Of a stretch of 64,000 nucleotides of DNA, positions 9,568 through 38,533 are shown piece by piece. Numbering within the stretch: position 1 is the first letter of the stretch; every line of letters starts with the position of its first letter. The notes below the pieces were generated by a model that was given only the letters and a program-made list of their open reading frames with translations, was not told the origin of the DNA and searched no databases. A program made the translations under genes and the position numbers. Where the stretch lies: contig CAVYRF010000001.1 of NCBI GenBank assembly GCA_963770895.1, positions 1,440,001-1,504,000 of the forward strand, given 5' to 3'. The DNA is from an uncultured Acidobacteriota bacterium (lineage in GTDB: Bacteria > Acidobacteriota > Thermoanaerobaculia > Multivoradales > UBA5704).

Positions 9568-10542
9568 TCAGGTAATCTCGATCTTGCCCAGGCCGAAGGT
9601 GGCGCCCTTCCCTACGTGGAGCACCTGGGCGGTGCGTAGAAGCGGCGCGAACGGAGCCAAGTCGCCGGTCAGCTCGATTTCGCCGACGAACCCGCCGAGG
9701 CTCATCGTGCACTGCTGGCGGTTGCTGTAGCGTTGCCAGTCGTGCCAGTGCAGGTTGGTGGCGGTTTCTCGCACCGCGCTCGCAGCGTCGAGGAGCGGGC
9801 GGAAGCTCCAGTCGATCGCCGCGGCAGGGACGTGGAAATGCGCCAGCTCGAGGGTACGGCGCAGCATCGCGAAGGCCAGCCCGCGGAATCCGAGGGTTGT
9901 CACCAGGTGGTCGCGCACCTTAAGCCGCGTCGGCGTGACGAAACGGACGCGCACGCGGGAGGAATCGGGGAGCTCGCCAAGCGGCACCTCGACGGCGGCG
10001 GGAGTGAATCCCTCGCCGTGGAGCAGCTCGCGCGTCCGGCCGTCCGGCTCGCGAGCGGCGACGCGCTCGACCTTGAACCGGTGGCGCGCGCGGCCGAGGC
10101 CGGCCTCCGCCATGCGCTCGACAGCCAGGACGGCGAACGCCTGCAGGTCGGCCGCCTGACCGACGAGGAGGAGATCGAAGGCGAGAGACTCGCCGGCCGC
10201 GAGCTTTCGCGCGGAGCTCCCCGGCTCGATGACGTAGGGCCGCGGGGCGGTCGGCAGCCCTCGCATCAGCGGCGGCGCCTGGCCCTCGACAAACGTCTCG
10301 AACATCCGGGTGTAGACGCATTCGCGCCGCAACCGGCAGGTGGCACAGGCCTGCTCCCGCCCCATGACGCACACCAGGCGGCGCAGCGCGTGCCCGAACG
10401 CACCGCGGAGCATCGAGCCCTGGTACTCGGGCAGATCGGCTGGCGCCAGGGCGCGCAGGGTGAAGGTGAGGCGCACGTAGGGCAACGTGGGCAGGCGGTA
10501 TGCGACGGCCGCGGGGCTCGTGGGCTCGCTATGGCTCAGCAT
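9568..10542 (-). CDS. cas6: crRNA-processing endoribonuclease Cas6
   Basis: GSMLRGAFG, RFVTPTRLK, W.RYSNRQ, C-terminal HVGKGATFGLG glycine loop. Confidence 0.95.
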   Translation of the reverse strand: MLSHSEPTSPAAVAYRLPTLPYVRLTFTLRALAPADLPEYQGSMLRGAFGHALRRLVCVMGREQACATCRLRRECVYTRMFETFVEGQAPPLMRGLPTAPRPYVIEPGSSARKLAAGESLAFDLLLVGQAADLQAFAVLAVERMAEAGLGRARHRFKVERVAAREPDGRTRELLHGEGFTPAAVEVPLGELPDSSRVRVRFVTPTRLKVRDHLVTTLGFRGLAFAMLRRTLELAHFHVPAAAIDWSFRPLLDAASAVRETATNLHWHDWQRYSNRQQCTMSLGGFVGEIELTGDLAPFAPLLRTAQVLHVGKGATFGLGKIEIT

Positions 10543-10584
10543 CACCACGCCCCTGCCGTGGGCCACGATCAGCGGCCTCGGGGT

Positions 10585-11325
10585 TCAACTGCCAGACCCT
10601 CGCTTGAGGGTGTAGTGGATCTCGATCTCGAGCGGATCGCCCGGCGTCATCCCCCGCAGGCGGTCGTCCCTGGTGAGCGCCGGCACCACCTCGATGCGCC
10701 GGCCGGGCGCCAGGGCTGCCAGGAAGGCTCCGGCCGTCGTCTGCTTCATGCCGCCCATGATGTTGACCACGACCTCGCTTTGCGGGATCGGCGGCATGAT
10801 GTCGGCGAGACGGCGGTAGACGCGCTCCTCGATGGCGTCCCGCACCGCCTCGGGATCGCCGAACGCTTTGTCGGTGAGGGAGATCTTCTCGAAATGCCGT
10901 ACCGATAGGCGCTCGTGGCGGCTCAGATCGTCGACCAGCTTGTCGGCTTCTGCCGCCGAGTCCGGGGAGTGCACGAGCCAGATGCGGCGGAGCGTCGCGG
11001 CGTGGTATTCGATCGCTTTGCGCGCGGTGGCGGCGCCGTCGCCGGAGCTCACGAGCGCGACCAGACCCTGGCATTCGCCGGCCCGGTGCTGGCGCGCCGT
11101 CGGCACCGGGCTCAGCGGCAGGAATCTGCGCACGATCGGCGGGGCGAGAAGCGTCAGGATCGCGAGCGGCACGACGAGAGCCAGGAGCCAGCGCGCCGCG
11201 GCGTTGTGCTGCAGCCAGTTGGAGTTGATGTTGGCGCTCAGGCTGAGCAAGTAGCCGACGATATAAAAGAGCAATGGGATTCGTTCCGCGGTGATCAACC
11301 CGGCGCGCAGGTCGGAAAGTTTCAT
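10585..11325 (-). CDS. 2TM-CARF membrane effector (Cam1-like architecture)
   Basis: Two N-terminal hydrophobic helices, then GLVALVS..IWLVHS..VVVNIMGGMKQTT CARF-like motifs; last gene before cas6. Confidence 0.8.
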   Translation of the reverse strand: MKLSDLRAGLITAERIPLLFYIVGYLLSLSANINSNWLQHNAAARWLLALVVPLAILTLLAPPIVRRFLPLSPVPTARQHRAGECQGLVALVSSGDGAATARKAIEYHAATLRRIWLVHSPDSAAEADKLVDDLSRHERLSVRHFEKISLTDKAFGDPEAVRDAIEERVYRRLADIMPPIPQSEVVVNIMGGMKQTTAGAFLAALAPGRRIEVVPALTRDDRLRGMTPGDPLEIEIHYTLKRGSGS

Positions 11326-11374
11326 GGGTGTGGCCTCGGCATGGGTCGCGATATTGCAAGATGTGGAACTGCAA

Positions 11375-11771
11375 GCATTGCCTGGCCGACCAGCACGAGG
11401 TTGAAGGAAAGAGCCCGCCGGCGGCGAGCCGTCGCGCGCAGCTCCCCGGTTCGAAGACGTATGGCCGCGGGGCCGCCGGCAGCCCTCGCATCAGTGGCGG
11501 CGGCTCGCCCTCGGCGCTTACGCGCCGGCCTGAACGTGGCGGAGGGAACTCCTCCCACGTCGCTAGGCCTCTTGAGGAGGCGAGGGAGGGTGAACACCAG
11601 GACGACGGCAGCGGGCGCGCCGAGCGCGATGGCCAGCGCGAGGCTCGCGTGCGACTGCAAGGCCCCCGCGAGCAGGTTGGCGCTGAGCGCGAGGGCGAAC
11701 CCGGTGGCAACGGACACGAACGACTCCGGGTCGACCATCAGCTTGCGCCATCGTCTCCAGTCCAAGGTCAT
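11375..11771 (-). pseudogene. Remnant: N-terminus of a second 2TM gene joined to an internal cas6 fragment
   Basis: MTLDW...ALSANLL...TM pair resembles 10585..11325; PPLMRGLPAAPRPYVFEPG and LSFNLVLVGQA match cas6. Confidence 0.7.
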
Positions 11772-13227: not shown

Positions 13228-13826
13228 GGGCGACCTCCACGTCCGCGCCGCGGAGCACCCGCGCCCGCACCGAGGTCCTCTCGTGGCTCCTCGTCGCGGA
13301 GCATCGCGAGCCCGACGCAGCGCACGAACTCGCCGCGCTGCCGCACCGCGTCGCGATACCAGCGGGCGGTGAGCCGTGGTGTCGCGCCCGCAGGCGGCGG
13401 CAAGACCTCGCGGTCGAGCGGAAAGGTCTGGATCTCCGGCAGCTCGCGGGCGTAGAAGCGCGCGCCCCCATCGGGGTTGCCTTCCCGATCGCGCTGCGGA
13501 TCGACCCACTCGCCCCAGAGCACGATGTGGGCCTCGCGCGTCCGCACGAGATCGAGCGGTGCCGAGAAGCCGGCCGGCATCGGCACCGCCGGCTCGAGGA
13601 GCAGCACCGCATGCACGCCCTCCTCCGCGCGGTGGCGCTGCCAGCGGTACTCGCCAGCCGGTCCGAAGAGCCGCCCCGCGGGCCATGCGGCCAGGTCGGC
13701 CCAGTCCGCCACCTCCTGGCGTCGCGCCAGGCGTGCCGCGGCCGGCGCCTCCAGCCAGGCGTAAGCGAAGTCCGGCAGGCCCGCGGGATGGCCGGCAAGG
13801 CGGGCGAAGGCGATGCAGGCGCTCAC
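13224..13826 (-). CDS. csx19: Csx19-like type III-D subunit
   Basis: GRLFGPAGEYRW, VLWGE, position before last RAMP; overlapping start/stop codons. Confidence 0.75.
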   Translation of the reverse strand: MSACIAFARLAGHPAGLPDFAYAWLEAPAAARLARRQEVADWADLAAWPAGRLFGPAGEYRWQRHRAEEGVHAVLLLEPAVPMPAGFSAPLDLVRTREAHIVLWGEWVDPQRDREGNPDGGARFYARELPEIQTFPLDREVLPPPAGATPRLTARWYRDAVRQRGEFVRCVGLAMLRDEEPREDLGAGAGAPRRGRGGRP

Positions 13827-14857
13827 GCCGGCACCTGCGCGGATTCCGGTCCGCCGCCCGGGCGCCCGATGAAGTCGGCGAACGCCGCCGCCGCGGCGCG
13901 CCACAGGTCGTCGAGGTCGGCAACAAGGTAGGTCTCGTAGAGGGACAGGCTGTGGTCGGGCTTGGGGGTGAGGCGCGCGGCAGGCGCCGGCCACTCGTGG
14001 AGGCCATAGTGCTGCCGCTCGGCCGGCGACGAGAGGCTGCCCAGGTGGTCGATGCACTTGCCGCCGTGGCCGGCGGGGTAGGCGAGGCGCGCTTCGCGGA
14101 CCGTTCCTTGGACCTGCCCGAAGCCCTTGGACTTGCCGAAGCCGAGCGCCACCATTCCGTCGGCGAAGTCGTTGAACACGTGGGCGAGAAGGCCGAGCTG
14201 CCAGAGCTCGAAGTTGGTGACCGTCACCGTGGTCGTGAAGGTTGTGTCCTCGAGCGCATGGAAGCGCATGTTGGCGCCGCCGCGGGCGCCAGTCTCTTCG
14301 TTTGCGTTCCCGGCGTAGACGCCGCCCGTGAAGCGGTCGATGCCGATCATGTCGCGGTAGACCGACCGGCAGGGGCCGGTCAGGTCGGCGTCGGCGAGCT
14401 GCACGCGGCTTGCGGTTGCTGTGCAGCCGAAGAGCCGGCAGGCAGGGCAGGCGGCGGCATAGGGCGAGGGTTCGGGCGGGCTGGCGCGGAGCCGCGAAGA
14501 GCACGAGGCGAGGTCAGCCGGCGCGTCGACGAACGGATCGCAGGCCGTTGTCGGTGGGCGGTCCTCGGCGCCGCGGAGGGAGCGTACGATCCGCTCGGCC
14601 TGGGCGCGGAACGGACCCCGCAGCGAGGTGCCGGGCACGTAGAAGGGTAGGTCCGGCGGCTTGCCGGGGTGGCTCAACACCGCACGCTTGAGCTCATGGT
14701 TGTGGTCGCTGCTGCGGCTGACAAACAGCTTGTTGGGGAGCTTCCCGCGGTTGGCCCGATCGTCGGGTTTCTCGTAGCGGCCGTCAGCGATGAGCAGCGG
14801 CCCAGGACAGGCAAGGGTCCAGGTGAAGCTTGCACTACACAGGCGGCGCCGCATCAT
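13823..14857 (-). CDS. csm3: Cas7/Csm3-like RAMP
   Basis: YVPGTSLRG, CPACRLFG, IGIDRFTGG, GFGKSKGFG. Confidence 0.85.
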   Translation of the reverse strand: MMRRRLCSASFTWTLACPGPLLIADGRYEKPDDRANRGKLPNKLFVSRSSDHNHELKRAVLSHPGKPPDLPFYVPGTSLRGPFRAQAERIVRSLRGAEDRPPTTACDPFVDAPADLASCSSRLRASPPEPSPYAAACPACRLFGCTATASRVQLADADLTGPCRSVYRDMIGIDRFTGGVYAGNANEETGARGGANMRFHALEDTTFTTTVTVTNFELWQLGLLAHVFNDFADGMVALGFGKSKGFGQVQGTVREARLAYPAGHGGKCIDHLGSLSSPAERQHYGLHEWPAPAARLTPKPDHSLSLYETYLVADLDDLWRAAAAAFADFIGRPGGGPESAQVPA

Positions 14858-17293: not shown

Positions 17294-17931
17294 CGCCACG
17301 TCCCCTCGATCCGCACGCCGCCGGCGAGCCGCCCCCAGCCCGCGGCCTTGCGGGCGCCGATGGCATCGACGATCGCCCCGCTCCAGCGCAGGAACACGAG
17401 CTCGTCGTCGGCGAGTGCGCCGTTCGCGACGATCGTGCCGTGGAAGCCAAGCTCGGCCGGCAGCGCCTCGTCGAAGAACAGGTGATCGGCAAGGGCCGTG
17501 CGGCTGCGGCGGGCCACCGCCAGGCCGGGACGGATCTCGACATCGGGGTGCACCACCGGGTTGGCATGGCCCCGGAGCAGCGCTGCACAGAGCTCCCGCC
17601 ACGGCTCGCTCAATGCGGCGTCGCCGACGCGCACCTGGCCGGCGACCGCACCGTTGCCGAAAAGGCGGCAGGCGGTACAGGCCGTGGACAGCCGTTTGCA
17701 GGCGGGTTTCTGTGCATCGTGGAGCCAGTAGGGGTCCGGCGCCCCACCGGAGCGCAGCAGGCGCTCGGCATGAAAGCGCAGCCGACCCTTGATCGTGGAC
17801 CCGGGGACGACCGGCAGGCCCGCGGCGTCGCGCACCGTGAAGCGATCGACGAGTCCCGCGGCGCCAAGCCCGGTGAAGATGCCGGTGGGCGAGGCGAGCG
17901 ACAGATCGTAGGCCGCCGCGCGCTCAGGCAT
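17290..17931 (-). CDS. Cas7-family RAMP
   Basis: VPGSTIKGRLR, CTACRLFG, IGARKAAGWG. Confidence 0.85.
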   Translation of the reverse strand: MPERAAAYDLSLASPTGIFTGLGAAGLVDRFTVRDAAGLPVVPGSTIKGRLRFHAERLLRSGGAPDPYWLHDAQKPACKRLSTACTACRLFGNGAVAGQVRVGDAALSEPWRELCAALLRGHANPVVHPDVEIRPGLAVARRSRTALADHLFFDEALPAELGFHGTIVANGALADDELVFLRWSGAIVDAIGARKAAGWGRLAGGVRIEGTWR

Positions 17932-19729
17932 GGGTGTCCGGGTCCTCTGCAGGGTGGGCGCCGGCTGCCGGCGGGATGGGCAGGCTGCCGGCGGGCGCGG
18001 CGGGCGGGACGAAGTCGAGCATTTCGACCAGCTCGGTCAGCGGCGTGCTCCAGGCGGACTTGTCACGCTCGCGGAAGGGGAAGCGGTCGAGCTCCGCCAC
18101 CAGCTCGGCGAGCGGTCCGCCGGCCGCGAGGTCGCCGGTCGTCTGGAGCCGTTCGCGTAGCTGAAGCGCCTCGTATTGCGCCTGCACGGGTTGCCGGAAG
18201 AGGGCGGCATAGAGCGCCTTGAGTTTGCTCCGCGGCACGGACGATGCCTTGAGCGCCGCGATCCGCTGGCGCAGCGCGCCGAGGCCTGCCGCCGTGTACG
18301 GCCGCTCGGTGCGAAGCAGCGCCGCGCCGCTCGGCAGCGTCGTGCGGTACTCGGTGGCACGGCGGTGTTTCAGGCTCTCGCTGCCACTCTCGTGGATCAC
18401 CGCGAAGTCGATCGTGCCGGCGGCCGTCCCCGACTCGGCAAGATCCGAGGCGAAGTGTTTGGCGAGCTTCATCAGCTCTGCGGCATGGTCCAGGAGCTGC
18501 GACGCCGGGAACGAGGCGTGCGCGATCGCCACGCCGGCCGAGGTCGTCAGGCCGTCGGGTGCGAAGCACCGGGCGAGGGCGCCGCTCCGCACCCGCTCGC
18601 GCTGGAGCTCGCGGGTCCGCTCCTGAAACAGCGTGACGAAGCGCTCCGCCACCGCCAGGGCCGATTGCGCTGGGACGATGAGCACGAGGTCGTCGCCGCC
18701 GGCGATCACGAACTCGGCCGGAATGAGGCGCGCCGGCTCGCCGCGGCCTGTGCCTGACCGGCGGCGCGGGCGCGTCTCCGCAGGCTCCGTCGCGACCTCG
18801 GCGATCACCGCTTCGACGGCCGCGGCGCGGGTGGCCTGGTCGACGATGGCGGAGAACGCTGCGTAGGCCGCCCTGGCCTCTCCATCACCGGCCGACTGAG
18901 CGCCGATCTGGCGGATGGTCTCGCCCATCCGGTTGCCGTCGGCATAGATGAGGGCGAAGTAATTGCGCGGTAGGGAGCGCGCGCCGATGTCGTCGAAATC
19001 CACGGGTAGGAGAACTCGGACCTTGGCGCCAAAGCGCTCCGCCGCCTGGGCCGCGAGGGTGGCAAGGACGCTGTCGGGCCAGCGCTGCTCGATCTCGCGG
19101 AGGGTGGGGATCGGTGTGAGCAGGTCGTAGTTCCGCTTGGCCTCGCGGTAGAACTCGCGGATGGTGTCGCGCTTGTACAGGCACGAGGAGCAGAGGAAGT
19201 GCCGACCCTGAACGTCGGCAGGCGGAACGGTCTCGGCGGGCCGCCTGCCGCACGACGAACAGGGCCGCAGCCAGCGACCGCCCAGCACCGGAAACGCCGC
19301 CAGACGGCCGAGCTTGTTGCTCTGCGACTCGGCCACGCCGCGCGCCACCCACGTGGTGAAAGGCTCGCTGGGCAGGCGGTCCAGGACCTCGATGGAAATG
19401 CGTGCGCTGCCCGTACGGTCACGATAGAGAGCGGCGACCGCCTCGGCAAAGCGCTCCGCGGCCACCCGGGTCGGAAACAGGATCCGCCCCGAGCCGCCCC
19501 CCAGATAGACAATCTCCGCATCGCGAAAGTCGGGCTGGGCGAGGAGCGAGCGCGTGTCCACGCGGTTCAGACGATCGAGGAGAAGGCTTGCCCCGCGCGT
19601 CTCGCGCAGATAGCGGGAACCAAAGAGATAGCTCTTGACCCGCTGGGTCTCCAAGACGACGAGCACCGGCGGCTCGGGCGCTGCCGGCGACGGGGGATGC
19701 CTGTGGAAGGTACCGGTCGGGCTCGTCAT
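17924..19729 (-). CDS. cas10: Cas10 large subunit, HD-less, palm GGDD intact
   Basis: VKSYLF..LRETRGAS, YLGGGSG, CSSC/CSSC zinc finger, YADGNRMG, AGGDDL. Confidence 0.95.
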   Translation of the reverse strand: MTSPTGTFHRHPPSPAAPEPPVLVVLETQRVKSYLFGSRYLRETRGASLLLDRLNRVDTRSLLAQPDFRDAEIVYLGGGSGRILFPTRVAAERFAEAVAALYRDRTGSARISIEVLDRLPSEPFTTWVARGVAESQSNKLGRLAAFPVLGGRWLRPCSSCGRRPAETVPPADVQGRHFLCSSCLYKRDTIREFYREAKRNYDLLTPIPTLREIEQRWPDSVLATLAAQAAERFGAKVRVLLPVDFDDIGARSLPRNYFALIYADGNRMGETIRQIGAQSAGDGEARAAYAAFSAIVDQATRAAAVEAVIAEVATEPAETRPRRRSGTGRGEPARLIPAEFVIAGGDDLVLIVPAQSALAVAERFVTLFQERTRELQRERVRSGALARCFAPDGLTTSAGVAIAHASFPASQLLDHAAELMKLAKHFASDLAESGTAAGTIDFAVIHESGSESLKHRRATEYRTTLPSGAALLRTERPYTAAGLGALRQRIAALKASSVPRSKLKALYAALFRQPVQAQYEALQLRERLQTTGDLAAGGPLAELVAELDRFPFRERDKSAWSTPLTELVEMLDFVPPAAPAGSLPIPPAAGAHPAEDPDTHA

Positions 19730-19904: not shown

Positions 19905-20160
19905 AAGCGCGGCGCGGGGTGCCTGGGGGAGGAACTTCCAGGTGCGCCGCGATGCGCGGTGTGCGATGGCGCAGGCAGCCGGTGGCGTCGGTGTAGAAGA
20001 CCTGGCGGAGCGTCGCGCGGACCCGTAGCTGCCGGTCGGGCTCGACGCGGGCGAGAGCGGTGGCGAGGTCACCGGCGGCGATGATGCGGTAGGTCTTGAC
20101 GATGTGGCCATCGCCGCTGGCCGGCCATTGGGCTTCGAGGTCGAAGGTGGCGCAGGCGAG
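19905..20160 (-). repeat. Fragment of the SLOG-module 3' part
   Basis: Matches ~37360..37600. Confidence 0.7.
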
Positions 20161-20294
20161 CAGTGTATTTAAGGTCAGGAGAATGCCGCGCTCGATTTTT
20201 CTCGCTTCACACCGCGGAGCTCGCCGCCGCCTACTTCATGTACGCCTCGGGCTCGACCGGTCGGGTGCACCGGTGGTTGCAACCCGAACAGATT

Positions 20295-22436
20295 GTCGCA
20301 ATCCCACCGCACGCATCAGGTCTTCTCCGACACCATGCCGGACGAGCGCTAGCGCCAGATTCGCGATCATCGTTAGTCGCAATCCCACCGCACGCTTCAG
20401 GTCTTCTCCGACGCAGAAGAGATCATCAAGCTCTACAAACTGCAAGCCACTTTGTCGCAATCCCACCGCACGCTTCAGGTCTTCTCCGACAGGAGTGATC
20501 GCGTTCCTGCTGTGGGGGGCATCAGAAAGTCGCAATCCCACCGCACGCTTCAGGTCTTCTCCGACTACAAGGAGTACGTCCGTGACGTCACGAGCGTCGC
20601 TCGTCGCAATCCCACCGCACGCTTCAGGTCTTCTCCGACCTCGACATGACCACCACCGAACAGATCAAGCTTCAGAAGTCGCAATCCCACCGCACGCTTC
20701 AGGTCTTCTCCGACTTCATCGTGGACTCGAACTGGGGCGTCAATCGGATGGGTCGCAATCCCACCGCACGCTTCAGGTCTTCTCCGACGCCGACTACGAC
20801 CACAAGACGGCGCTCGCAGCTTTCGTCGCAATCCCACCGCACGCTTCAGGTCTTCTCCGACGGGCCTATCGTTGAGATCAATCGACTGGATGGCGAAGTC
20901 GCAATCCCACCGCACGCTTCAGGTCTTCTCCGACCGTCCACTCGGACCGGCTCAACGGCAAGAGCGACAACGTGTCGCAATCCCACCGCACGCTTCAGGT
21001 CTTCTCCGACGCATCCGCTTCTACTACGATGGCGACCGCAGCACCTGGTAGTCGCAATCCCACCGCACGCTTCAGGTCTTCTCCGACTCGTCTGCGAGCT
21101 GAGCGACGAAGAGCTTGAGCTGAGTCGCAATCCCACCGCACGCTTCAGGTCTTCTCCGACTCGGACCCGCGAAGGCATCGATGTCAGCGGCCTTAAGTCG
21201 CAATCCCACCGCACGCTTCAGGTCTTCTCCGACAATGGCTGCGCGGCGCAGGTCCGATCCCTGCAAAAAGACGGTCGCAATCCCACCGCACGCTTCAGGT
21301 CTTCTCCGACTCGTACACGAATGTCTCAACCGATTCACTACTGGCGGAGTCGCAATCCCACCGCACGCTTCAGGTCTTCTCCGACGCTGATGGTCATGTT
21401 GTGTCTGGGCTTCACGGCAAACGGTCGCAATCCCACCGCACGCTTCAGGTCTTCTCCGACGCAGGTCCTCGGCGCCTCTCACAACACGAACGTCCAGAAG
21501 TCGCAATCCCACCGCACGCTTCAGGTCTTCTCCGACCCGTTTGGGAGAGGTTCAGCCGGCGGTCAGGACGCCTGGTCGCAATCCCACCGCACGCTTCAGG
21601 TCTTCTCCGACAGCCACCATGAGATGTATTAATACCCCTTTACATTGGACATGGTCGCAATCCCACCGCACGCTTCAGGTCTTCTCCGACGCGAATCCGA
21701 TTAGTCCAGAAATAGGTCTCGATACTCGTCGCAATCCCACCGCACGCTTCAGGTCTTCTCCGACAAGCGGTACCCGCGGTCGCTCACCCAGGTCAAGAAG
21801 GACGTCGCAATCCCACCGCACGCTTCAGGTCTTCTCCGACGTCGAGGTCCAGTTTCCAGGCCTGCTCGGCACGCACGTGTCGCAATCCCACCGCACGCTT
21901 CAGGTCTTCTCCGACGTACAGCGAGTGGATAGCTCGGAAGGTTCTGGATCAGGTCGCAATCCCACCGCACGCTTCAGGTCTTCTCCGACTCGGACCGACA
22001 AATCCCCTCTATCCGATCTTCTGGTACCGTCGCAATCCCACCGCACGCTTCAGGTCTTCTCCGACGTCGAATGCGACTATGACGCGATGCGCCAGACCGC
22101 AGTCGCAATCCCACCGCACGCTTCAGGTCTTCTCCGACCATTCACGCCGCCGAGCAGCGCTTCTGGGTGGCAGTCGTCGCAATCCCACCGCACGCTTCAG
22201 GTCTTCTCCGACGGAGTTTGACGGCCTTCAGTGTGCATGCCAGATGCTTGTCGTCGCAATCCCACCGCACGCTTCAGGTCTTCTCCGACTTTGGTCGAAT
22301 TCGTAGTCCATGCCGGTGTTGTTGAGTCGCAATCCCACCGCACGCTTCAGGTCTTCTCCGACTAGAAAGGAAAGGGAGGACACACGACATGGACTTAAAG
22401 TCGCAATCCCACCGCACGCTTCAGGTCTTCTCCGAC
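20295..22436 (-). CRISPR. CRISPR array 3: 29 repeats, 28 spacers
   Basis: Plus-strand repeat GTCGCAATCCCACCGCACGCTTCAGGTCTTCTCCGAC; leftmost repeat has the array-1 sequence. Confidence 0.99.
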
Positions 22437-22655: not shown

Positions 22656-22835
22656 TCAGACGACATAAACCTCCGGGTCTTCGGTTACCACGCCGGTCCC
22701 CAGGATCATGATCTTCGGAGCGCATTCCTGACAAATGCGATAGAGAGCTGCACGCGCGCCGAAGTCATTCAGCAGGTTGGACACCTTGGTGCGCCGGCGG
22801 TTGTCGACCACATCATACGAAATCAAGGTCAGCAT
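22656..22835 (-). pseudogene. cas2: cas2 pseudogene with ~96-bp internal deletion
   Basis: Both ends match 5881..6156; middle missing. Confidence 0.9.
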
Positions 22836-23175
22836 GGGTACCGGAACCCCGCGTACGGCTCGCCATCGAGGAGGTGCCGAGCGAGCCGCTCCGCCTGGCG
22901 GCGGAAGATCTGGTGGAAGCAGAGCGCTTGCCGCCGAACGCCATCGGAGTCGTCAGCTCCTTCTCGTAGGCTATAAAGTTACGCTTGAGCGCCGGCGGCG
23001 TCAGGAAGACGCCGCGCTCGGCCGTGCCCGTGAAGTCCGCCGGTGCTGGCACGCCGAGGTTCAGAAGGCTCGTGGTCCAGCGGTCGACGAGCGGCGCGCG
23101 CAGCTCCTCGGGCGGGTCGAGCGCCAGGGAGGGGCGGCCGTAGGCCAGCTGATGATCCCCAGGTACGGGTCGAGG
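22829..23175 (-). pseudogene. cas1: cas1 3' fragment
   Basis: YGRPSLALD...ADFTGTAERGVFLTPPALKR matches intact cas1, with indels. Confidence 0.9.
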
Positions 23176-23383
23176 CTCCGGGGACTGTCTGCCTTGCCGC
23201 GCCCCGGATAGACGGTGCGTTACTGAGTAGGTCGCCAAGCTCGCTTCTTACTTGCGCCTGCGGATACGCTTCCGTCCGTCGACTTCCCGACTTCCGCGCT
23301 GCCTTATCAGCTCTCTTCGCATTGAAGCCGACAGAGGGCCTACCAAAGCACGATCTGATCTCAGATTTCCCGCATCCGGTTAA

Positions 23384-24886
23384 CTCTACTTTGTCAGATT
23401 TCGGAAGCGCTTGATTCCAAGGCGGTTAGCTCTTAGAATTGGGCTGGAAAGTATGATTTCTCGCCGAGACCAGATGCTTCCCCCCCTCAAAGGACCATAG
23501 TCGGAAGGAGAGACGCTATGCCCCAGCTCCCCTGCAAGAGCTGGGAGCGCGATTCCTGGCCTTTCAGCGGGGATTTGCGCTTCTTTTCCGCCTGCGGACC
23601 CGAGACGTGAACTTGCAAGCACGGGCGTATCTGAGCGGTTTGTTGCAGGCCGCAAAGCGCAACGTCCAGCGGATGGCAGAGGTGGTGCCCGGCACCGAGG
23701 CTCAGGCACTGCACCACTTTCTCGCTCATTCGCCCTGGGATGCGCGAGCCGTCATGGATCAAGTGGCGAAAGAGGTCGGCGGGCTGTTGGGCGGAGATCA
23801 GGACACCTGCCTGCTGCTCGACGAGACCTGCTTTGCGAAGAAAGGCGTTCGGTCGGTGGGCGTAGCTCGGCAGTGGTTCGGCTTGCAGGGCAAGACGGAT
23901 AACTGCCAGGTGGCGGTCTTCGCCGCCTTGGCGCGAGGCAAGCGGGTCAGCCTGATCGATGCGGAGCTGTACCTGCCGCGGGAGTGGGTCGAGGATCCAA
24001 TGCGATGTGCCGCGGCGGGTGTGCCGGTTGAGCGCCGCGTGATGAAGACGAAGCCAGCGTTGGCTCTGGATCTGGTTCGACGAGCACGACGCAACGGAGT
24101 GCACTTCGCCTGGGTGGCGGCGGATGGGACGTATGGTCAGGATCGCGCTCTGCTGCGCGCCCTCGACGACGCCGATGAGACGTTTGTCATCGATGTTCAC
24201 CGGGACCAACGGGTCTTTCTTGACAACCCGCGTCGGGCCAAACGACGTCGGGCGACACCGGAGTCTCGCGCTGAAGACTTGCGTGTGGACGAATGGGTTG
24301 CTCGCCAACCGGCCGCAGCATGGCAAGAAGTATGGGTCCGGCGCGGGACCCAAGGGGAGCTTCGTGTGCAAGCCCTGCGTTGCCGCGTCTGGGTGCGCGA
24401 AGCCACAGAGACCCAAGCCCGCTGTTGGCAGTTGATCGTGACGCGCGAGATCGGTGCGCCCGACACCACCAAGTACAGCTTCAGCAATGCCGCCGAGCAG
24501 ACCTCTTTGCAACGGTTGGCTTATATGCAGCGGCAGCGCTACTGGGTCGAACGTGCCTTCCAGGAAGCCAAGAACGAGGCCGGCATGGACGAATACCAGG
24601 CGCGAAGCTGGCAAGCTTGGTATCACCACATGGCCCTCGTCATGATGGCGCTGCTTTTCATTCTGAAAGAAAAGCAGTTGCAGAGCGAGGCTCTTCCTCT
24701 CCTGAGTGCTGCCGACGTGAAACATCTGCTCGTTCGGCTCTTACCCCGGCGGGACCTCGACATCGAGGAGTCGATCCGTCAGGTGCAGAGCCGGCACCGC
24801 CAACGTCAAGCCGCTATCGACTCTGCTTCTCGCCGACAGCAAGAATCCAGGGCCTCTACCTCGTCGACGAATCTGACAAAGTAGAG
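23384..24886 (+). mobile_element. IS701-family insertion sequence
   Basis: Terminal IR CTCTACTTTGTCAGATT / AATCTGACAAAGTAGAG, flanked by TTAA at 23380-23383 and 24887-24890. Confidence 0.92.
23607..24884 (+). CDS. IS701-family transposase (start uncertain)
   Basis: DETCFAKKG..SVGVARQ..GKTDNCQ, ADGTYG, RYWVERAFQEAK. Confidence 0.93.
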   Translation: MNLQARAYLSGLLQAAKRNVQRMAEVVPGTEAQALHHFLAHSPWDARAVMDQVAKEVGGLLGGDQDTCLLLDETCFAKKGVRSVGVARQWFGLQGKTDNCQVAVFAALARGKRVSLIDAELYLPREWVEDPMRCAAAGVPVERRVMKTKPALALDLVRRARRNGVHFAWVAADGTYGQDRALLRALDDADETFVIDVHRDQRVFLDNPRRAKRRRATPESRAEDLRVDEWVARQPAAAWQEVWVRRGTQGELRVQALRCRVWVREATETQARCWQLIVTREIGAPDTTKYSFSNAAEQTSLQRLAYMQRQRYWVERAFQEAKNEAGMDEYQARSWQAWYHHMALVMMALLFILKEKQLQSEALPLLSAADVKHLLVRLLPRRDLDIEESIRQVQSRHRQRQAAIDSASRRQQESRASTSSTNLTK

Positions 24887-24929
24887 TTAATGCTCGAAAG
24901 AGGACTTCCTCGGCTGCTTTGTGGCCGCT

Positions 24930-26687
24930 TCAATGTGGCGGACCGTGCGATGCCGGACCGGCCGCACTCGGGGCCTTGGCTTGCTCTTGAAGGTACCGCA
25001 GCGGGTGGAAGAGCAGCTTCTGGTAGCCGGTGGCAGACGGATCGCGCATCGCCGCAAGCTGCGCCTGGAGATTTCTTCCCCAATGGATGCGGTCCAGGCT
25101 TTTCGTGCGGACCGCTTCGCCTGCGGCGAGGAACCAGGCGATGCGTGGGGCCGAAAAGCTGGTGCCGTAGACATCGTCGGTCACGGTGCCGTCGAAGCCC
25201 GCGGCCAAGGCCAGATCGATGTCCCCTGCCTCGACAAGGGTGGAGTCCGGAGCGACGCCGGCAGGGGTCATGTTGATGACGGCCATGGTGTCCGTGGAGT
25301 TCTCGGATCGCTGAGCAAAATCGAGGAGATGGGTCGTCCCGTCGTTGCCCGCGGCGGCGGTCACCACCCCATAGAGTGGACTGTCATACAACACTCTGTA
25401 CTTTCCGTCGTGCCGCACCGTCCAGGATTCGCTGGCCAGAAAAACCGTGGAAGCCTCTTCGGCATAGGCCTGGCCGATGAGCAGCACGGCGTCCATCACC
25501 GAGTTGTCGGTCTCGACTTCGTCTCCCGTCCAGCGCACGGGGAAGTGCTTTGCGACGAGCGCGGTGGCATAGCTGCGGGCGGCGCCGATGATCTGCGTGT
25601 TCAGGGCGACTCCTCGGGCGGCCCTCAATTGCAGCAGGTCGCTGGTCTGCAATAGGTCGGTCAGGATAGTACTCCCTCCCTGTTCGCGGGTCATCGGGAC
25701 ATAGATGACCCTGACCCGCCGGGGGCCTCCCTGGTCCAGCGCCCGCAGCTCACGCAGCGCCCGTTCAATGCACCGGCAATGATCGTGGCTGGCGGGGAGC
25801 CACGTTTTTTGAGCAGCGGGCTTCTGGAACGGCCGGCCGAAGTTTTCTTGCCAGACCTTGTCGAGAACCTCGTACAGTGTGTCACGGGACTCGCGATAGG
25901 CCTCCGGCGAAGGCCATCCCGTGTCGAGCACGAAGACCACCGGGGCGCGTTGGCCGTGTTCCATGAGCAGGCGCGAGATCTGCTCCTTGTCGCCGGCGGC
26001 AAGGGTGAGGTGATCGCGTTCCGGGGGCTCGGTATCGCATTTGCTCACGTCGGCTAGTTTCACCGGCATGGACTGGGTGAACTCCTTCACGGTCCCGGGG
26101 TCGAAGGCATCTGACGAGGCCAGGTGGTCGGCGACGGCCGCCGGCAGCTCGAACGCCAGCACCTCGAAGGGGCGGCGGTAGACGCGCTCCTCGATGGCGT
26201 CCCGCACCGCCTCGGGATCGCCGAACGCTTTGTCGGTGAGGGAGATCTTCTCGAAATGCCGTACCGATAGGCGCTCGTGGCGGCTCAGATCGTCGACCAG
26301 CTTGTCGGCTTCTGCCGCCGAGTCCGGGGAGTGCACGAGCCAGATGCGGCGGAGCGTCGCGGCGTGGTATTCGATCGCTTTGCGCGCGGTGGCGGCGCCG
26401 TCGCCGGAGCTCACGAGCGCGACCAGACCCTGGCATTCGCCGGCCCGGTGCTGGCGCGCCGTCGGCACCGGGCTCAGCGGCAGGAATCTGCGCACGATCG
26501 GCGGGGCGAGAAGCGTCAGGATCGCGAGCGGCACGACGAGAGCCAGGAGCCAGCGCGCCGCGGCGTTGTGCTGCAGCCAGTTGGAGTTGATGTTGGCGCT
26601 CAGGCTGAGCAAGTAGCCGACGATATAAAAGAGCAATGGGATTCGTTCCGCGGTGATCAACCCGGCGCGCAGGTCGGAAAGTTTCAT
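24930..26687 (-). CDS. Fusion: 2TM + partial CARF + S8/subtilase-like peptidase domain
   Basis: First ~171 aa identical to 10585..11325; then VFVLDTG, H.., AAAGNDG, GTSFSAP subtilase motifs in one frame. Confidence 0.75.
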   Translation of the reverse strand: MKLSDLRAGLITAERIPLLFYIVGYLLSLSANINSNWLQHNAAARWLLALVVPLAILTLLAPPIVRRFLPLSPVPTARQHRAGECQGLVALVSSGDGAATARKAIEYHAATLRRIWLVHSPDSAAEADKLVDDLSRHERLSVRHFEKISLTDKAFGDPEAVRDAIEERVYRRPFEVLAFELPAAVADHLASSDAFDPGTVKEFTQSMPVKLADVSKCDTEPPERDHLTLAAGDKEQISRLLMEHGQRAPVVFVLDTGWPSPEAYRESRDTLYEVLDKVWQENFGRPFQKPAAQKTWLPASHDHCRCIERALRELRALDQGGPRRVRVIYVPMTREQGGSTILTDLLQTSDLLQLRAARGVALNTQIIGAARSYATALVAKHFPVRWTGDEVETDNSVMDAVLLIGQAYAEEASTVFLASESWTVRHDGKYRVLYDSPLYGVVTAAAGNDGTTHLLDFAQRSENSTDTMAVINMTPAGVAPDSTLVEAGDIDLALAAGFDGTVTDDVYGTSFSAPRIAWFLAAGEAVRTKSLDRIHWGRNLQAQLAAMRDPSATGYQKLLFHPLRYLQEQAKAPSAAGPASHGPPH

Positions 26688-26861
26688 GGGTGTGGCCTCG
26701 GCATGGGTCGCGATATTGCAATATGCGGAAGTGCAAGCATCGCTGCATCGCTGCATCGCGCGGTGCGCTCAACATGATCTTTGCGGACGTGTCGCTTTCA
26801 AACGTTTGGTCTGGGGTCATCTTATAGTAGCCTACAGAGCAAGCAACTTCGGAAGTCGCTC

Positions 26862-28418
26862 ATGGAAGACCTGGAAGCACAGCTGCTCGCCGGCCTGGCC
26901 AGGGCCCTGCGCGTCGCGCCCGGCGACGGTCTGCGAAGCTACATCGCGACCGGTCGCGGCAGCCAGTCGGGGCGCGCCAAGCTGCTGGCCTGGGATGCCA
27001 ACAGCATCCACGCCTTTGTCTTCGACACCACGAACCCCACCGGGATCCGCGGCGCAAGCGACATTCTGCGGTCGATCGACGACGAGGTGCGCCGGGGCCG
27101 GGCTCTGGGCCTTGACGCCGGGCAGGTGCTCTTCGCCGGCGGCGGCAGCGGTCTCGCGATCGTCGCCCACGCCGAGGTCGAGTCCGCCGCGAGGCACCTC
27201 CATACGCTCTTTGCCACGCGCACCCGCATCGCCACCTGCACCGTGGCGAGCGTGGATCTGATCGCTGAGGCGGGCTTCGACGAGTGCGTCCGCCAGGCCG
27301 GCCGAGCGCTGGCGCGGGAGCGGGTGCTGACCGGCCCCGACGCCGAGCCGGCCGTGCCCTTTTTCGTGCAGCGCTGCCGGGTGTGTGGACGCCGCGCCGC
27401 CGCACGTTCCGAGCGGCGCCTGTCGTCGCCCGGTGAGCCGCGTGCGGAATGCGAGCCGTGCTACCTGCGCATCGAGCGGGGCAAGCAGAACGTCCACTAC
27501 CAGGGCGAGCCCACGGATTTCCAGGCCATCGCCGACGGCGACGGCTGGTACGCGGTCCTATACCTCGACGGCAACGGCATCGGCAAGGCGTTGACGCGGC
27601 TGCCGAGCCCGTTGCGCTATGCCTGTTTCTCGCGCGCGATCGCGAGCGTCTTCGCGGACAGCTTTCATCACACCGCCGCCAGCTACGGTCTGGACGAGGA
27701 TGGTGGCTCCGGAAGAGGCGGTTTTCAGCTGCCGATCTGCGGCGGCGACGACGTGGTGGCGGTGCTGCCCGGCGATGCCGCGGTACCGTTCGCCCGCGAC
27801 CTGCTGGCGGGCGTCGAGGCCGCTGCCGACGCGCATCCCGATCTTGCCGGCCAGGCGATCGGTGCCGCGGCGGGCGTCGCCCTGGCGCACCTGGGCTTCC
27901 CCTTGCGCCACCTGCTTGCCGAGGCCCACGGCCTGCTGGCCGAGGCCAAGCGCCGCCGGTACGACGACGAAAGCCGCAGCTCCCTGAGCTTCAGCGTGGT
28001 CACCGACGGCTCGCCGCGCAGCGAGACGCGGGAGCCCGAGCGCTGGGCGCGCCAGGCGGGGGAGCTGCTGCTGTCGGGGCGCCCCTACGGCCTCGACGAG
28101 TTCGCCAAGTTCAGCCGCCGGCTGCGCCAGATCCGCGATTCCGGTCTCGCCCGCACGCAGCTCCACGCCCTGCACGCCCACGCCGCGCGCGGTCCGGCGC
28201 AGTTCAGAAACCACGTGCTGTATCAGATCGGCCGCCGGAAGGAATGGCGCACGCTGACCGGTACGCTCGGCGGCGGCGCGGCCGTGGTGCGCGATCCAGG
28301 CGTGTGCCTCGACCAGTTCTTGCCGACCTACGGCGGGCGGCAGGTCTTCGACGTCGCCGACATGCTCGAGCTGACCCCTCATTGGCGGGAGCCCGCCGCC
28401 GCGATCGCCCCGCAATGA
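26862..28418 (+). CDS. cas10: Cas10 large subunit, HD-less, GGDD intact
   Basis: IHAFVF..IRGAS, FAGGGSG, CRVC/CEPC, YLDGNGIG, CGGDDV. Confidence 0.93.
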   Translation: MEDLEAQLLAGLARALRVAPGDGLRSYIATGRGSQSGRAKLLAWDANSIHAFVFDTTNPTGIRGASDILRSIDDEVRRGRALGLDAGQVLFAGGGSGLAIVAHAEVESAARHLHTLFATRTRIATCTVASVDLIAEAGFDECVRQAGRALARERVLTGPDAEPAVPFFVQRCRVCGRRAAARSERRLSSPGEPRAECEPCYLRIERGKQNVHYQGEPTDFQAIADGDGWYAVLYLDGNGIGKALTRLPSPLRYACFSRAIASVFADSFHHTAASYGLDEDGGSGRGGFQLPICGGDDVVAVLPGDAAVPFARDLLAGVEAAADAHPDLAGQAIGAAAGVALAHLGFPLRHLLAEAHGLLAEAKRRRYDDESRSSLSFSVVTDGSPRSETREPERWARQAGELLLSGRPYGLDEFAKFSRRLRQIRDSGLARTQLHALHAHAARGPAQFRNHVLYQIGRRKEWRTLTGTLGGGAAVVRDPGVCLDQFLPTYGGRQVFDVADMLELTPHWREPAAAIAPQ

Positions 28419-34868: not shown

Positions 34869-34946
34869 GGGGGCCGGGCGGACCTGAGGCTTACGGTGGG
34901 ATTGTGGCATGTTGGGCGTACCCTTGAGCTCGGACGCTTTGCGACC

Positions 34947-36242
34947 ATGCAAGCTGAATCGGACGTGCCGCGACCGCGGGGGGCCTTGGTTAGTTTGGGG
35001 GGCAGCCCCGAACCGGTGATCTGGGTGCTGAACCGGCTGCAGCCCGAGATCGTGCTGCTGTTCGTCTCGCGCGACAGCTCCCGCGAGGTGGGGCGGGTGA
35101 TGGGCGCGCTCGACTACCAGGTCCGCGCCTTCGATCAGATCGTCACCCCTTCGGCGGAGGTGCTGAGCGACTGCTACCGGGCGCTGCGTCAGGAGCTGCC
35201 GCGGAAGCTGGTGCAATGGGGCCTGCGGGCTGCGGATCTGGCGGTCGACTACACCGGCGGCACCAAGCCGATGTCCGCGGCATTGGTTCTCGCCACCGCG
35301 GATCAAGTCCATCAGTACTCGTATGTCGGTGGTGCGGAGCGCGACAAGGGGGGCCTGGGGGTGGTGGTGGCGGGCAAGGAGAGGGTTTGGTTCGTACAGA
35401 ACCCCTGGAAGGATCTGGCGCGGGACGAGCTGATGCGCGTCGCGGTGCTGTTCCAGAACGTCCGCTACCTGGTCGCCCACGATGAGCTGATGGCGCTTGC
35501 TGAGCGTGCCGACGCCGAGACGCGGCCCTTGCTCGCGGCGCTGGGGAAGCTGGCGTTGGGGCTGGCGCATTGGGACGCGTTTGGGCACGCGAAGGCAGTG
35601 CCTCTTCTGGGCGAGGCCTTCGGCTTCTTCAAGGTCTATGGGTTATCTGTCCCTCATGCGCGATGGAGGAGCTTCGCGGCGACGATCGAAGGCAGCCTGA
35701 GCTTCCTGCGGCGCATTCCCACGAAAGCCGGTCCGGCGCCAGGAGAGGTTCTGGAAGGGGGGCGGGCGGTGGTCTTGGACCTGATTGCCAACGCCGATCG
35801 GCGCGCCCGCGTCGAGCACAAGCACGAGGACGCCGTCGCGCGCTTGTACAGTTGCGTCGAACGCGCGGCTCGGTTCCGCCTGCTGGCCAGGACGCCGGCG
35901 ATCGATAATGAAAAGGTGCCGCCCACGCTGGTGCCGGAGGGCCTGCGGGAGGAGTTCGTGCGGCGGTTTGGCGATGGCTCGAAGCCGGTGTTGAAGCTGC
36001 CTCTCGATGCCAGCTTCCAGCTGCTCGCCGCGCTCGGGGATCCCTTGGGCGCAGCGTTTGCGGCGCGTCAGGACGAGGCACGGATGCTTCTGGCGCTGCG
36101 CAACCGTTCGATCCTGGGGCACGGGATGGAGCCGGTGACGGAGGAGGGGTACAGGCGGTTCAGGGCGTTCGTGGTGGGTTTGCTGGCGGTGGAGGAGGAG
36201 GAGCTGCCGCGGCTGCCGGAGCCTCCGCCGGTGGTCGAGTAG
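34947..36242 (+). CDS. TIGR02710-like CARF-HEPN effector
   Basis: SLGGSPEP, DYTGGTKPMS, DLIANADRR, AVARLY, HEPN-like RNRSILGHG. Confidence 0.9.
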   Translation: MQAESDVPRPRGALVSLGGSPEPVIWVLNRLQPEIVLLFVSRDSSREVGRVMGALDYQVRAFDQIVTPSAEVLSDCYRALRQELPRKLVQWGLRAADLAVDYTGGTKPMSAALVLATADQVHQYSYVGGAERDKGGLGVVVAGKERVWFVQNPWKDLARDELMRVAVLFQNVRYLVAHDELMALAERADAETRPLLAALGKLALGLAHWDAFGHAKAVPLLGEAFGFFKVYGLSVPHARWRSFAATIEGSLSFLRRIPTKAGPAPGEVLEGGRAVVLDLIANADRRARVEHKHEDAVARLYSCVERAARFRLLARTPAIDNEKVPPTLVPEGLREEFVRRFGDGSKPVLKLPLDASFQLLAALGDPLGAAFAARQDEARMLLALRNRSILGHGMEPVTEEGYRRFRAFVVGLLAVEEEELPRLPEPPPVVE

Positions 36243-36299
36243 GGTAGTGGTTGCGGGGCGGCCCGCCGCGCGCGGCTTGTTCCAGCTGCCGCAGATTCC

Positions 36300-36645
36300 T
36301 TACCAGCGGCTGCGCTTCACCCTCGAGGCGCGTCAGCCCCTACACGCGCCTGTGCGAGGTCTTTATCGAAGGTGAGCCGCTGCCCTTCCTGCGCGGCTTG
36401 CCGACGGCGCCGTGCCCCTACGTCATCGAGCCGCTCGCTGCCGACCACGACGTCCGTGCCGGCGGCATGATCGACTTTGACTTGATCCTGGTCGGCCAGA
36501 TACAGCAACCGTCAGCGCACCCGGATGACCCTGGGCGGCTCCGTCGGGATGCTGGATCTGGAAGGCGACCTCGCACCCTTGTGGACGCTGTTGCGAACGG
36601 CGGAGGTGTTGCCCGTCGACAAGGGCACCACGTTCGGGCTCGGGC
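36300..36645 (+). pseudogene. cas6: Internally deleted cas6 remnant
   Basis: FIEGEPLPFLRGLPTAPCPYVIEP; MTLGG...GDLAP...KGTTFGLG. Confidence 0.85.
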
Positions 36646-37347: not shown

Positions 37348-38073
37348 CTACCGCCGGGGGCGGTGGGCCTGGGGCAGGAACTTCCAGGTGCGCGCTTCGA
37401 TGCGGGGTGTGCGATGGCGCAGGCAGCCGGTGGCGTCGGTGTAGAAGACTTGGCGGAGCGCCGCGCGGACCCGTAGGTGCCGGCCGGGCTCGACGCGGGC
37501 GAGAGCGGTGGCGAGGTCGCCGGCGGCGACGATGCGGTAGGTCCTGGCGATGTGGCCATCGCCGCTGGCCGGCCACTGGGCTTCGAGGTCGAAGGCGGCG
37601 CAGGGAGATCCATCCACCATGGAAAGGGTCGGGCGGCGGGCGAGCTTGCCGATGATCGGTGCGAGCCGCAGTCTGTAGATGGTCAGCGGACGGCGGTCGT
37701 GGCGGGCGCGGGTGATGGTGTCGTGGGTGCCGTTGCTGGCGCCGTCCCAGAAGGCGACCAGGTGATCGCAGGTGTCGACGATGCGCTGGTTGCGGATGCG
37801 GCCGGCGGCGAAGCGGCCGTCGCGGTCCCAGTCGGCGCGGTGCTCGACGAAGCGGAGGCAGCGCGCCCGCGCGGTGGTGAGGGCCGTGCGATCGACGCCG
37901 CGGGCGTCGCCGGTGATGAGGACGACGCCTTGGGGGAGGGTGGCGACGAAGCTCTGGACGCGAGCGAGGTCGGCGAAGAGGCGCGAGCCGACGACGGCGA
38001 CGCGGTGGCCTTCGGGATGGGTGGAGCGGACGGCGGCGGCGGGGGTTGGCGGGAGGGGATGGAGTGGGTCCAT
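37348..38073 (-). CDS. SLOG-superfamily (DUF2493-like) protein with C-terminal extension
   Basis: VAVVGSR, TGDARGVD, IRNQRIVD, VAFWDGASNGT; GGAGG RBS. Confidence 0.7.
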   Translation of the reverse strand: MDPLHPLPPTPAAAVRSTHPEGHRVAVVGSRLFADLARVQSFVATLPQGVVLITGDARGVDRTALTTARARCLRFVEHRADWDRDGRFAAGRIRNQRIVDTCDHLVAFWDGASNGTHDTITRARHDRRPLTIYRLRLAPIIGKLARRPTLSMVDGSPCAAFDLEAQWPASGDGHIARTYRIVAAGDLATALARVEPGRHLRVRAALRQVFYTDATGCLRHRTPRIEARTWKFLPQAHRPRR

Positions 38074-38533
38074 GTCGGAACCTCCTATGGAGGGGCCCGC
38101 GGAGGATTCCGCGGGCCTCACCTGTATCCCCCTTTCTCCCCTGGTTGGCAGGAGTGACCCGGGTCGGCGTCGGCGATGCGCTCGACTGTGAGGACGGCGA
38201 GAGGCTCAACGTGGACGATAGAAATAACGTCCGATCGCTGAAGGTCGGGGTGACGACGGGTCCCTTCCGGTACATGTTCGGAGGGAAGCGGCCGCCATGA
38301 GGAACCAACGGCCCGGATCCAGAGTGGGTTTTTCCCTACGAGGTCGCGGCAGAGAGCCCCGGGATTTGGCGGATCACGGTGACGAGTGACTTACAGCCCG
38401 GCGGGTATGGTTGGTAGGTCAATTTCACAGTCCCGGAATTCTTCGCCGCTATTGACAGCCAGATCGTCAGGGAGGCGGTGTCTTCGACTTCGGGGTCGAC
38501 TGACGCACGAAGTGCCGATCATCGCCGCGTCCA

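Follow-up and report, generated by a model that had tools for sequence, protein, structure and literature searches.

Membrane proteins as well as proteases have been described among the effectors of type III CRISPR systems, and the available sections of an effector census name Cam1, Csx23, CorA, Cam2 and Cam3 as membrane effectors and CalpL and SAVED-CHAT as protease effectors (PMC11229360). Cam1 has been reported to form a tetrameric pore, and NhCam1 comprises 206 amino acids (aa) with one transmembrane (TM) helix, as stated in the accessible part of its description (PMC10808066). For Cap1, two TM helices and a CARF-like domain have been found to make up a pore gated by cyclic tetra-adenylate (cA4), and its relatives fall into one clade with TM helices and sensor only and another with extra domains, named DUF4579, in the accessible part of a preprint (bioRxiv 10.1101/2025.11.13.688252). 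Here, we describe a chimeric open reading frame (ORF) in a window of 64,000 nucleotides (nt) of an uncultured Acidobacteriota bacterium (contig CAVYRF010000001.1), in which the two TM helices and the first half of the CARF domain of an intact 2TM-CARF protein from the same window have been joined to a complete, divergent subtilisin-fold domain beside a type III-D-like cas10 gene. In a preliminary description of this DNA, CalpL and SAVED-CHAT had been named among the known type III protease effectors, and no effector combining TM-CARF with a subtilase (S8) domain had been known. Full-text literature searches, whose listed results have been judged by title, have likewise returned no paper tying CARF or type III CRISPR to a subtilase; in the census sections at hand, the strings 'subtil' and 'peptidase' occur 0 times each (PMC11229360), and in the accessible part of the Cap1 preprint 'protease' appears solely as an inhibitor tablet (bioRxiv 10.1101/2025.11.13.688252). 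The TM-CARF-S8 architecture is unreported, and the evidence indicates a one-off rather than an overlooked family: the ORF is probably an in-frame fusion born of a rearrangement, without a function regulated by cyclic oligoadenylates (cOA).

The chimera is, as had been proposed, a single frame of 585 codons and a stop, counted from the methionine of MKLSDL (Table 1); an upstream in-frame ATG at 26756, the first of the frame, would lengthen it to 608 aa (24930..26756, minus strand). A scan of the chimera against NCBIfam has given no match. Its N-terminal 172 residues are identical to those of the intact 2TM-CARF protein, which is far beyond chance; the earlier claim of a duplication has thus held, and its length of about 171 residues has been corrected by one. 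By blastn, the shared DNA extends over 568 nt with 3 mismatches (99.5% identity), all of which lie 5' of the ATG (at −35, −39 and −44), so that 515 of 515 shared coding bases match. The intact copy sits 15 kb from the chimera. The copied coding part is 100% identical, as compared with 92-93% identity to locus A (one of the two type III-D-like loci of the window) for the leader and the cas1 remnant next to it, both paralogous; this indicates that the copy arose very recently or that gene conversion from the intact gene has taken place. The G+C content at third codon positions is 0.87 in the copied part versus 0.79 in the S8 part. On the CARF side, the junction falls after helix α3, and β4, the GGxK motif and everything beyond are gone. 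On the S8 side, homology to the relatives starts in the alignment at PFEVLAFELP, exactly at the junction, which corresponds to a variable linker of the S8-like family; therefore, the protease-like domain is whole. The ordered Asp, His, Asn and Ser motifs of S8 peptidases pointed out before have all been recovered, in the succession VFVLD255TG, HDH303CRCI, AAAGN448DG and GTS510FSAP. Neither the signal/LysM part of the S8-like gene nor the 3' part of a second CARF gene has been found in the 64-kb window, and an inversion or translocation inside these 64 kb is therefore unsupported.

A repeat bordering a novel join also calls for a consideration of mis-assembly, in which the assembler would have made the join at 26172/26173 or at 26740/26741 around the 568-nt repeat. 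The near-identity of this repeat at the join, the many other near-identical repeats in the window and the occurrence of the chimeric protein in a single contig would be compatible with such an artefact. However, the S8 side lies in no repeat, so that even after a mis-join through the repeat, S8 sequence would border on it; towards one end, 3 positions distinguish the two copies, which is what separate, resolved copies should show; the join is in frame and within an inter-domain linker; and the 2.24-Mb contig runs through three CRISPR arrays, which suggests long reads. Because the S8 side is unrepeated and the repeat copies differ at three positions, we rate the probability of a mis-assembly as low.

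The N-terminal parent, the intact 246-aa protein, is a member of the known membrane-CARF class, as follows from PADLOC, from its AlphaFold2 (AF2) model and from structural matches to the Cam1 CARF domain. PADLOC assigns it to PDLC01168 ('CARF, 2 TMs') with an E-value of 6.8e-21 over profile positions 12-189 of 200. In the AF2 model (mean predicted local distance difference test, pLDDT, of 72.8; CARF blocks 81-93), helices 16-38 and 42-68 precede a Rossmann-type domain consisting of β1 (87-92), β2 (114-119), β3 (145-149), α3 (158-170), β4 (185-188), α4 (194-204) and further strands to 236, while a crude hydropathy scan gives one strong TM segment (41-69) as against the two modelled helices. The best structural match in the PDB is the Cam1 CARF domain (8t66_A, E 9.1e-7, template-modelling score 0.67 on the target), and the CARF domains of Csm6, Card1 and Can2 come next. 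At the level of sequence profiles, NCBIfam has given only sub-threshold CARF matches (Csa3, E 0.002; TIGR02710, E 0.0074), and a search of PDB sequences with the 2TM-CARF profile only non-significant matches to CARF ring nucleases (E 0.19-0.94). The 11 relatives measure 161-249 aa, ten of them 240-249 aa and one 161 aa, and none of the 11 lacks GGxK. In the alignment, S93/G97 and the motif GG-x-K-x-T-T-A-G are invariant, and the longer Gly-rich form D/N-x-x-GG-x-K-x-T-T-A-G has been seen in 12/12 rows of the family (G191, G192, K194, T196). In CARF proteins, this Gly-rich motif after β4 lines the ligand pocket.

Precisely this part is missing in the chimera. As the preliminary description had cautioned, its CARF stops before GGxK: the copy ends 13 residues ahead of the VVVNIMGGMK strand of the intact protein, and the match to the PADLOC CARF_2M profile covers positions 12-144 of 200 only. 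With residues 1-172 alone, the chimera possesses neither the complete Rossmann-like core (β1 to β5/6) nor the Gly-rich motif, which falls beyond residue 172, and the combination of TM helices with a complete CARF in a type III locus, by which membrane CARF effectors are recognised, is present in the intact parent but not in the chimera. No dimeric CARF ligand pocket could be built from a half-CARF, and cOA control is therefore not expected. The search for longer proteins with a 2TM-CARF N-terminus has returned the chimera alone, which by the caveat of the tool is weak evidence. Conceivably, the retained portion might act on its own parent, the TM helices and half-CARF poisoning or titrating the intact 2TM-CARF pore as a dominant-negative fragment and thus damping abortive infection. 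Its first 172 residues are indeed those of the intact effector, and the effector class is oligomeric according to the accessible part of the Cam1 study (PMC10808066), but such interference would equally be the by-product of a rearrangement rather than a selected function, and the chimera is a singleton; we see only a slim chance for this explanation.

The C-terminal parent belongs to a family of about 600 aa, mostly from Acidobacteriota, whose members are named 'hypothetical protein' in the sources. A search with residues 172-585 has yielded 33 other proteins with 39-76% identity (31 of 550-632 aa and two of 394 and 413 aa), and an exhaustive search of cluster representatives 281 at E <= 1e-3, the matched domain being C-terminal in the full-length proteins listed. 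The relatives begin with a short hydrophobic leader ending in A/G-Q, by its form probably a signal peptide, and continue with a domain marked by G-D-T-L-D ... Y-G-F-G ... L-R-P-G-x-L-x-I-P. In the alignment, this conserved leader and the LysM-type N-terminal region are absent from the window protein. The LysM-type segment of the relative P0004 has been detected in 31/33 of the closest relatives and in 100/116 of the further members of at least 500 aa, and it aligns with a stretch of P0069 that is scored as LysM by Pfam above the cut-off. The native N-terminus, for which the preliminary description had proposed to search the S8 homologs, is thus of another kind than that of the chimera, and blastp of the 171-aa TM-CARF N-terminus against 180 members of the S8-like family has given 0 matches. 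In a quick maximum-likelihood tree of 44 rows, the S8-like half from the window is sister to P0002 (SH-aLRT 100), followed by P0003 (95), deep within the LysM-bearing clade. Since the window copy is nested in this clade and is the sole longer 2TM-CARF protein found, its N-terminus appears to have been replaced on this one terminal branch, the TM-CARF N-terminus being, as judged from the sequences, the derived state. The opposite polarity, in which the fusion would be natural and ancestral and the 246-aa gene a truncation derived from it, is scarcely credible: the shared sequence is all that speaks for it, whereas the 246-aa form is the norm of its family in length and in its GGxK motif and has a PADLOC model made for exactly this form, and the S8-like half sits among LysM-bearing proteins, none of the 180 with a TM-CARF N-terminus.

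The protease-like domain itself adopts a subtilisin-like α/β fold in its AF2 model (pLDDT 93.9, predicted template-modelling score 0.93). All matches listed by Foldseek in the PDB are subtilases, 56 of them with E <= 0.001 (best 5.6e-5, probability 0.99-1.00), although with template-modelling scores of only 0.25-0.54; the BFVD matches are S8/S53 peptidases, and 30/30 Atlas matches fall into the Peptidase_S8 set. The best Atlas clusters for this domain are labelled viral. Across 122 family sequences, H303, S421 and S510 do not vary, and D255 and N448 reach a conservation of at least 90%, which at the sequence level presents a candidate triad in the order Asp-His-Ser with an oxyanion Asn. The Pfam model Peptidase_S8 (PF00082) scores the window protein with 13.6 bits (E 0.042), below its cut-off of 21.8 bits; among 12 relatives it is listed in 9, and P0020 alone lies above the cut-off (29.1 bits), while the genome-locus relatives L004 and L009 reach 22.6 bits. 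PADLOC has returned a weak 'subtilase' call (E 0.0005-0.006) for 3/6 scanned proteins with the S8-like domain, and a search of PDB sequences with the family profile has found no chain beyond chance-level Seh1 (E 0.56-0.81). As additional traits, the family shows the invariant S421 (window numbering), an H-C-x-C arrangement at the catalytic His and three conserved cysteines (C217, C304, C306).

Linkage of the S8 homologs to cas10, likewise proposed earlier as a check, has been assessed by a scan of genome contigs, which has located the S8-like family in 17 loci, mostly of Acidobacteriota and in addition of Sphingomonas, Pseudomonas, Steroidobacter and others, with relatives at 23-54% identity (22-59% by tblastn with the window S8 half alone). 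A tblastn search with 11 CRISPR-linked window proteins (nine Cas proteins, the reverse transcriptase (RT) and 2TM-CARF) has matched 0/17 of these loci; Pfam has assigned no Cas family to any of 170 out of 172 neighbouring ORFs (>= 120 aa, within about 6 kb, two very long ORFs being omitted); and a k-mer test for CRISPR-like arrays has been negative at 0/17 loci and positive for the window as control. Such a linkage has hence not been observed, the family recurring beside type III genes in 0/17 genome loci, and in the chimera the protease is coupled to half a CARF instead of an intact nucleotide sensor. The neighbours across the 17 loci are varied and include BNR/sortilin-like proteins, outer-membrane barrels, TonB receptors and genes of sugar metabolism. 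One distant S8-like relative is situated between phage terminase and portal genes (L015:9230-10519), and another among RES, SocA/Panacea, AbiEii/AbiEi and Mrr genes of the toxin-antitoxin and restriction type (L010:9434-11269).

Several observations nevertheless weigh against regarding the fusion as functionless. Its ORF is open across all codons with zero frameshifts; a Shine-Dalgarno-like GAGG is located 9-12 nt ahead of the ATG, and one sigma-70-like site, by consensus match only, 5' of it (26801-26774); the junction has spared the entire protease-like domain, and the four candidate catalytic residues are intact. Of the 135 columns with a conservation of 90% or more among 31 relatives, the S8-like part keeps 131, the four changes being the junction residue, A338G, K395N and F417L, and its branch in the tree has a length of 0.11 as against 0.25 in its sister; therefore, no sign of decay can be recognised. 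Furthermore, the chimera is directly divergent from cas10, an arrangement in which accessory effectors are often found, and its closest relatives (e.g., P0002, 76%) are metagenome-derived and stand outside the 17 loci examined. One could thus imagine a nascent functional effector that is expressed, inserted into the membrane and incorporated into oligomers of intact 2TM-CARF via its TM helices and half-CARF, where cOA bound by the intact subunits would control, or simply localise, a cytoplasm-facing protease of the S8 type. Beyond the intact ORF and the complete, undecayed protease-like domain, this proposal draws on an N-terminus shared with a class of proteins working as tetramers, as reported in the accessible parts of the work on Cam1 (PMC10808066) and on Cap1 (bioRxiv 10.1101/2025.11.13.688252), and on the adjoining cas10 with its GGDD motif. 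If true, this would be the first case in which type III signalling has an S8-type output, and it would show the origin of a sensor-effector fusion as it happens, just after birth. We consider it improbable, though, as the chimera is a singleton whose architecture recurs in 0/180 S8-like and 0/11 2TM-CARF relatives, its sensor half ends short of β4 and GGxK, the S8-like family is without CRISPR linkage in the 17 loci, and the native family, which looks exported and LysM-anchored and possesses C217, C304 and C306, might be unable to fold or to work in the cytoplasm. The lack of decay, the whole domain and the expression-like signals fit a very recent event equally well.

A fusion born of a rearrangement therefore remains our preferred explanation. 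With TM-CARF N-termini in 0/180 relatives and CRISPR linkage in 0/17 loci, both findings that the preliminary description had named as speaking against an effector have been made, as far as the search reaches; of its two readings, that of a recent chimera is supported, and that of a new cOA-linked membrane protease, against which the half CARF also speaks, is not. The chimera is no member of any effector family, and a one-off rearrangement scar is more likely than a signal-controlled protease. In the simplest course of events, one deletion or illegitimate recombination would have linked a second 2TM-CARF copy beside cas10 with an S8-like gene that lay downstream of this copy in the same orientation, the frame being preserved by luck with a chance of 1 in 3. 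Alternatively, the S8-like gene may have had its 5' end exchanged for a 568-nt piece of the intact gene. The perfect coding identity would be due to a recent origin or to gene conversion. In a translated product, the half-CARF and the protease-like domain would be held in the cytoplasm by the two TM helices, although the native family looks exported; such a protein would be anchored in the membrane, its half sensor would not function, and its protease-like domain would be in the wrong compartment. Most likely, the fusion product is inert or mildly costly, and its decay has yet to begin.

Regarding its genomic setting, the chimera lies beside locus B, which occupies the plus strand, whereas locus A occupies the minus strand (Table 1). 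The chimera is divergent from cas10, as noted previously, and locus B is type III-D-like by its Csx10 (TIGR02674) and Csx7 matches and a Cas10 palm domain; GGDD is found in both Cas10 proteins of the window. The intergenic region of 174 bp given before applies if cas10 starts at the ATG at 26862; it measures 93 bp from the first possible start, a TTG at 26781. On its other side, the chimera is followed by an insertion sequence (IS), whose near end is 39 nt away from the stop codon; a truncation of the chimera by the IS has been rejected, since the C-terminus aligns to the end of the relatives. The IS occurs as a single copy in the window, and its perfect inverted repeats are bordered on both sides by TTAA, maybe a target duplication; it has accordingly been dismissed as the cause of the fusion and is, given its single copy, its TTAA borders and its position past the stop codon, presumably a later simple insertion. 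About 200 nt without assignment separate it from a cas1 remnant, which matches the 3' end of the intact cas1 (6150-7400) and adjoins the leader of the array 20284-22436. The cas1 and cas6 remnants, the IS and the many integrase and transposase genes show that the region is heavily rearranged and recombination-scarred. One cas6 remnant is located just 5' of the intact 2TM-CARF gene, as if this gene had been inserted as a cassette into the cas6 region, and locus B seems to have a fragmented cas6, whose pieces overlap and are read in different frames (repeats D11, D12, D19).

Table 1. Positions in the 64,000-nt window of the chimera, its parent gene and surrounding features.
Feature	Position	Strand	Remarks
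Chimeric ORF	24930..26687	-	585 aa and stop, from the methionine of MKLSDL (26687)
Chimera, residues 1-172	26172..26687	-	two TM helices and first half of CARF (β1 to α3), same sequence as in the intact 2TM-CARF protein
Chimera, residues 173-585 and stop	24930..26171	-	complete divergent subtilisin-fold domain
Candidate catalytic codon D255	25923-25925	-	
Candidate catalytic codon H303	25779-25781	-	
Candidate catalytic codon N448	25344-25346	-	
Candidate catalytic codon S510	25158-25160	-	
568-nt repeat, copy B	26173..26740		53 nt upstream and 515 coding nt of the 2TM-CARF gene
568-nt repeat, copy A	10811..11378		within and upstream of the intact 2TM-CARF gene
Intact 2TM-CARF gene	10585..11325	-	246 aa; PADLOC 'CARF, 2 TMs'; locus A; parent of the chimera N-terminus
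cas10 of locus B	26781..28418	+	divergent from the chimera; GGDD at residue 321
Locus B: csx10, small subunit-like ORF, two csx7, TIGR03986 RAMP		+	
Locus B: Csm6-type CARF-HEPN gene	34896-36242	+	
IS element	23380..24890	+	DDE_5 transposase 23607-24884; perfect 21-nt terminal inverted repeats
cas1 3' remnant	22743..23173	-	aa 309-416 of 416, frameshift; 93% nt identity to 6062-6499
cas6 remnants	11417-11515, 36275-36644, 42660-43063		
Locus A: cas10	17924-19729	-	
Locus A: Csx7/Csx10-type RAMP genes		-	
Locus A: TIGR03986 RAMP	11833-14007	-	
Locus A: cas6	9568-10566	-	
Locus A: CRISPR array; RT, cas1, another array		-	

Further features of the window have been recorded alongside. The CRISPR arrays (4352-5674, 8481-9281 and 20284-22436) are built from near-identical 37-nt repeats in three slightly different variants, and the repeat family D1 comprises 57 aligned copies across all three. 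The RT (7148-8089), which is of the group-II-intron type, lies directly upstream of and overlaps the cas1 ORF; the two form the RT-associated adaptation module of a type III-D-like locus. A 226-aa ORF at 40386-41066 matches part of the CHAT domain (PF12770, E 6.2e-8, profile positions 2-114 of 289) and may be a fragment of a CHAT-type effector. Segmental duplications have been seen between 1-300 and 37648-37947 (99%) and between 19944-20156 and 37392-37604 (94%), amid which a SLOG/YspA-like ORF (37348-38121) is found. From 44130 to 63990 (44-64 kb), mobile-element genes are dense, comprising three tyrosine integrase ORFs or fragments, an IS3-type rve transposase, a 757-aa serine recombinase and an IS21 IstB with a Mu-transposase C-terminal domain; the segments 50704-51166 and 63452-63914 of this cluster are long inverted repeats.

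A new class of cOA-activated membrane protease would have been notable, and the evidence points instead to a singleton fusion of two truncated genes. As such, the chimera represents a clean, datable case of in-frame domain shuffling amid CRISPR-cas genes, of the kind that supplies the material for sensor-effector fusions, and it cautions that a motif-level architecture beside cas10 is insufficient to call an effector. The more promising lead, and the real unknown here, is the uncharacterised family that combines a LysM-type with a divergent subtilisin-fold domain (281 representative clusters).

Compared with the known systems, the intact parent resembles Cam1 in its N-terminal TM helices, its CARF domain and its type III locus, and the chimera shares its first 172 residues with this parent. 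It differs in that two TM helices have been modelled in the window protein versus one in NhCam1, as given in the accessible part of that work (PMC10808066), and the chimera departs further from Cam1 and CARF_2M proteins by the loss of the second CARF half including GGxK and by its foreign C-terminal domain. The arrangement of two TM helices and a Rossmann-type sensor is also that of Cap1, a comparison by layout, as no Cap1 sequence or structure is among the matches. CalpL (SAVED-Lon) and SAVED-CHAT stand for the concept put forward in the preliminary description, in which a nucleotide sensor and a protease are fused beside a type III system. These two, however, possess intact SAVED sensors, Lon or CHAT folds and a recurrent CRISPR linkage according to the census sections available (PMC11229360), while the chimera combines half a CARF with a subtilisin-like fold from a protease family that is CRISPR-linked in 0/17 loci. 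From the subtilases (MEROPS/Pfam S8; subtilisin, proteinase K, Tk-subtilisin, PatA/PagA), the S8-like family is set apart by its strong divergence, reflected in the low template-modelling scores, by the extra invariant S421 and the H-C-x-C, and by a native LysM-type N-domain in the place of an I9-type propeptide, of which none has been seen. It nonetheless shares with them the fold and the order Asp-His-Asn-Ser, and the candidate residues of the chimera are placed at a strand end and at helix starts, presumably in agreement with subtilisin.

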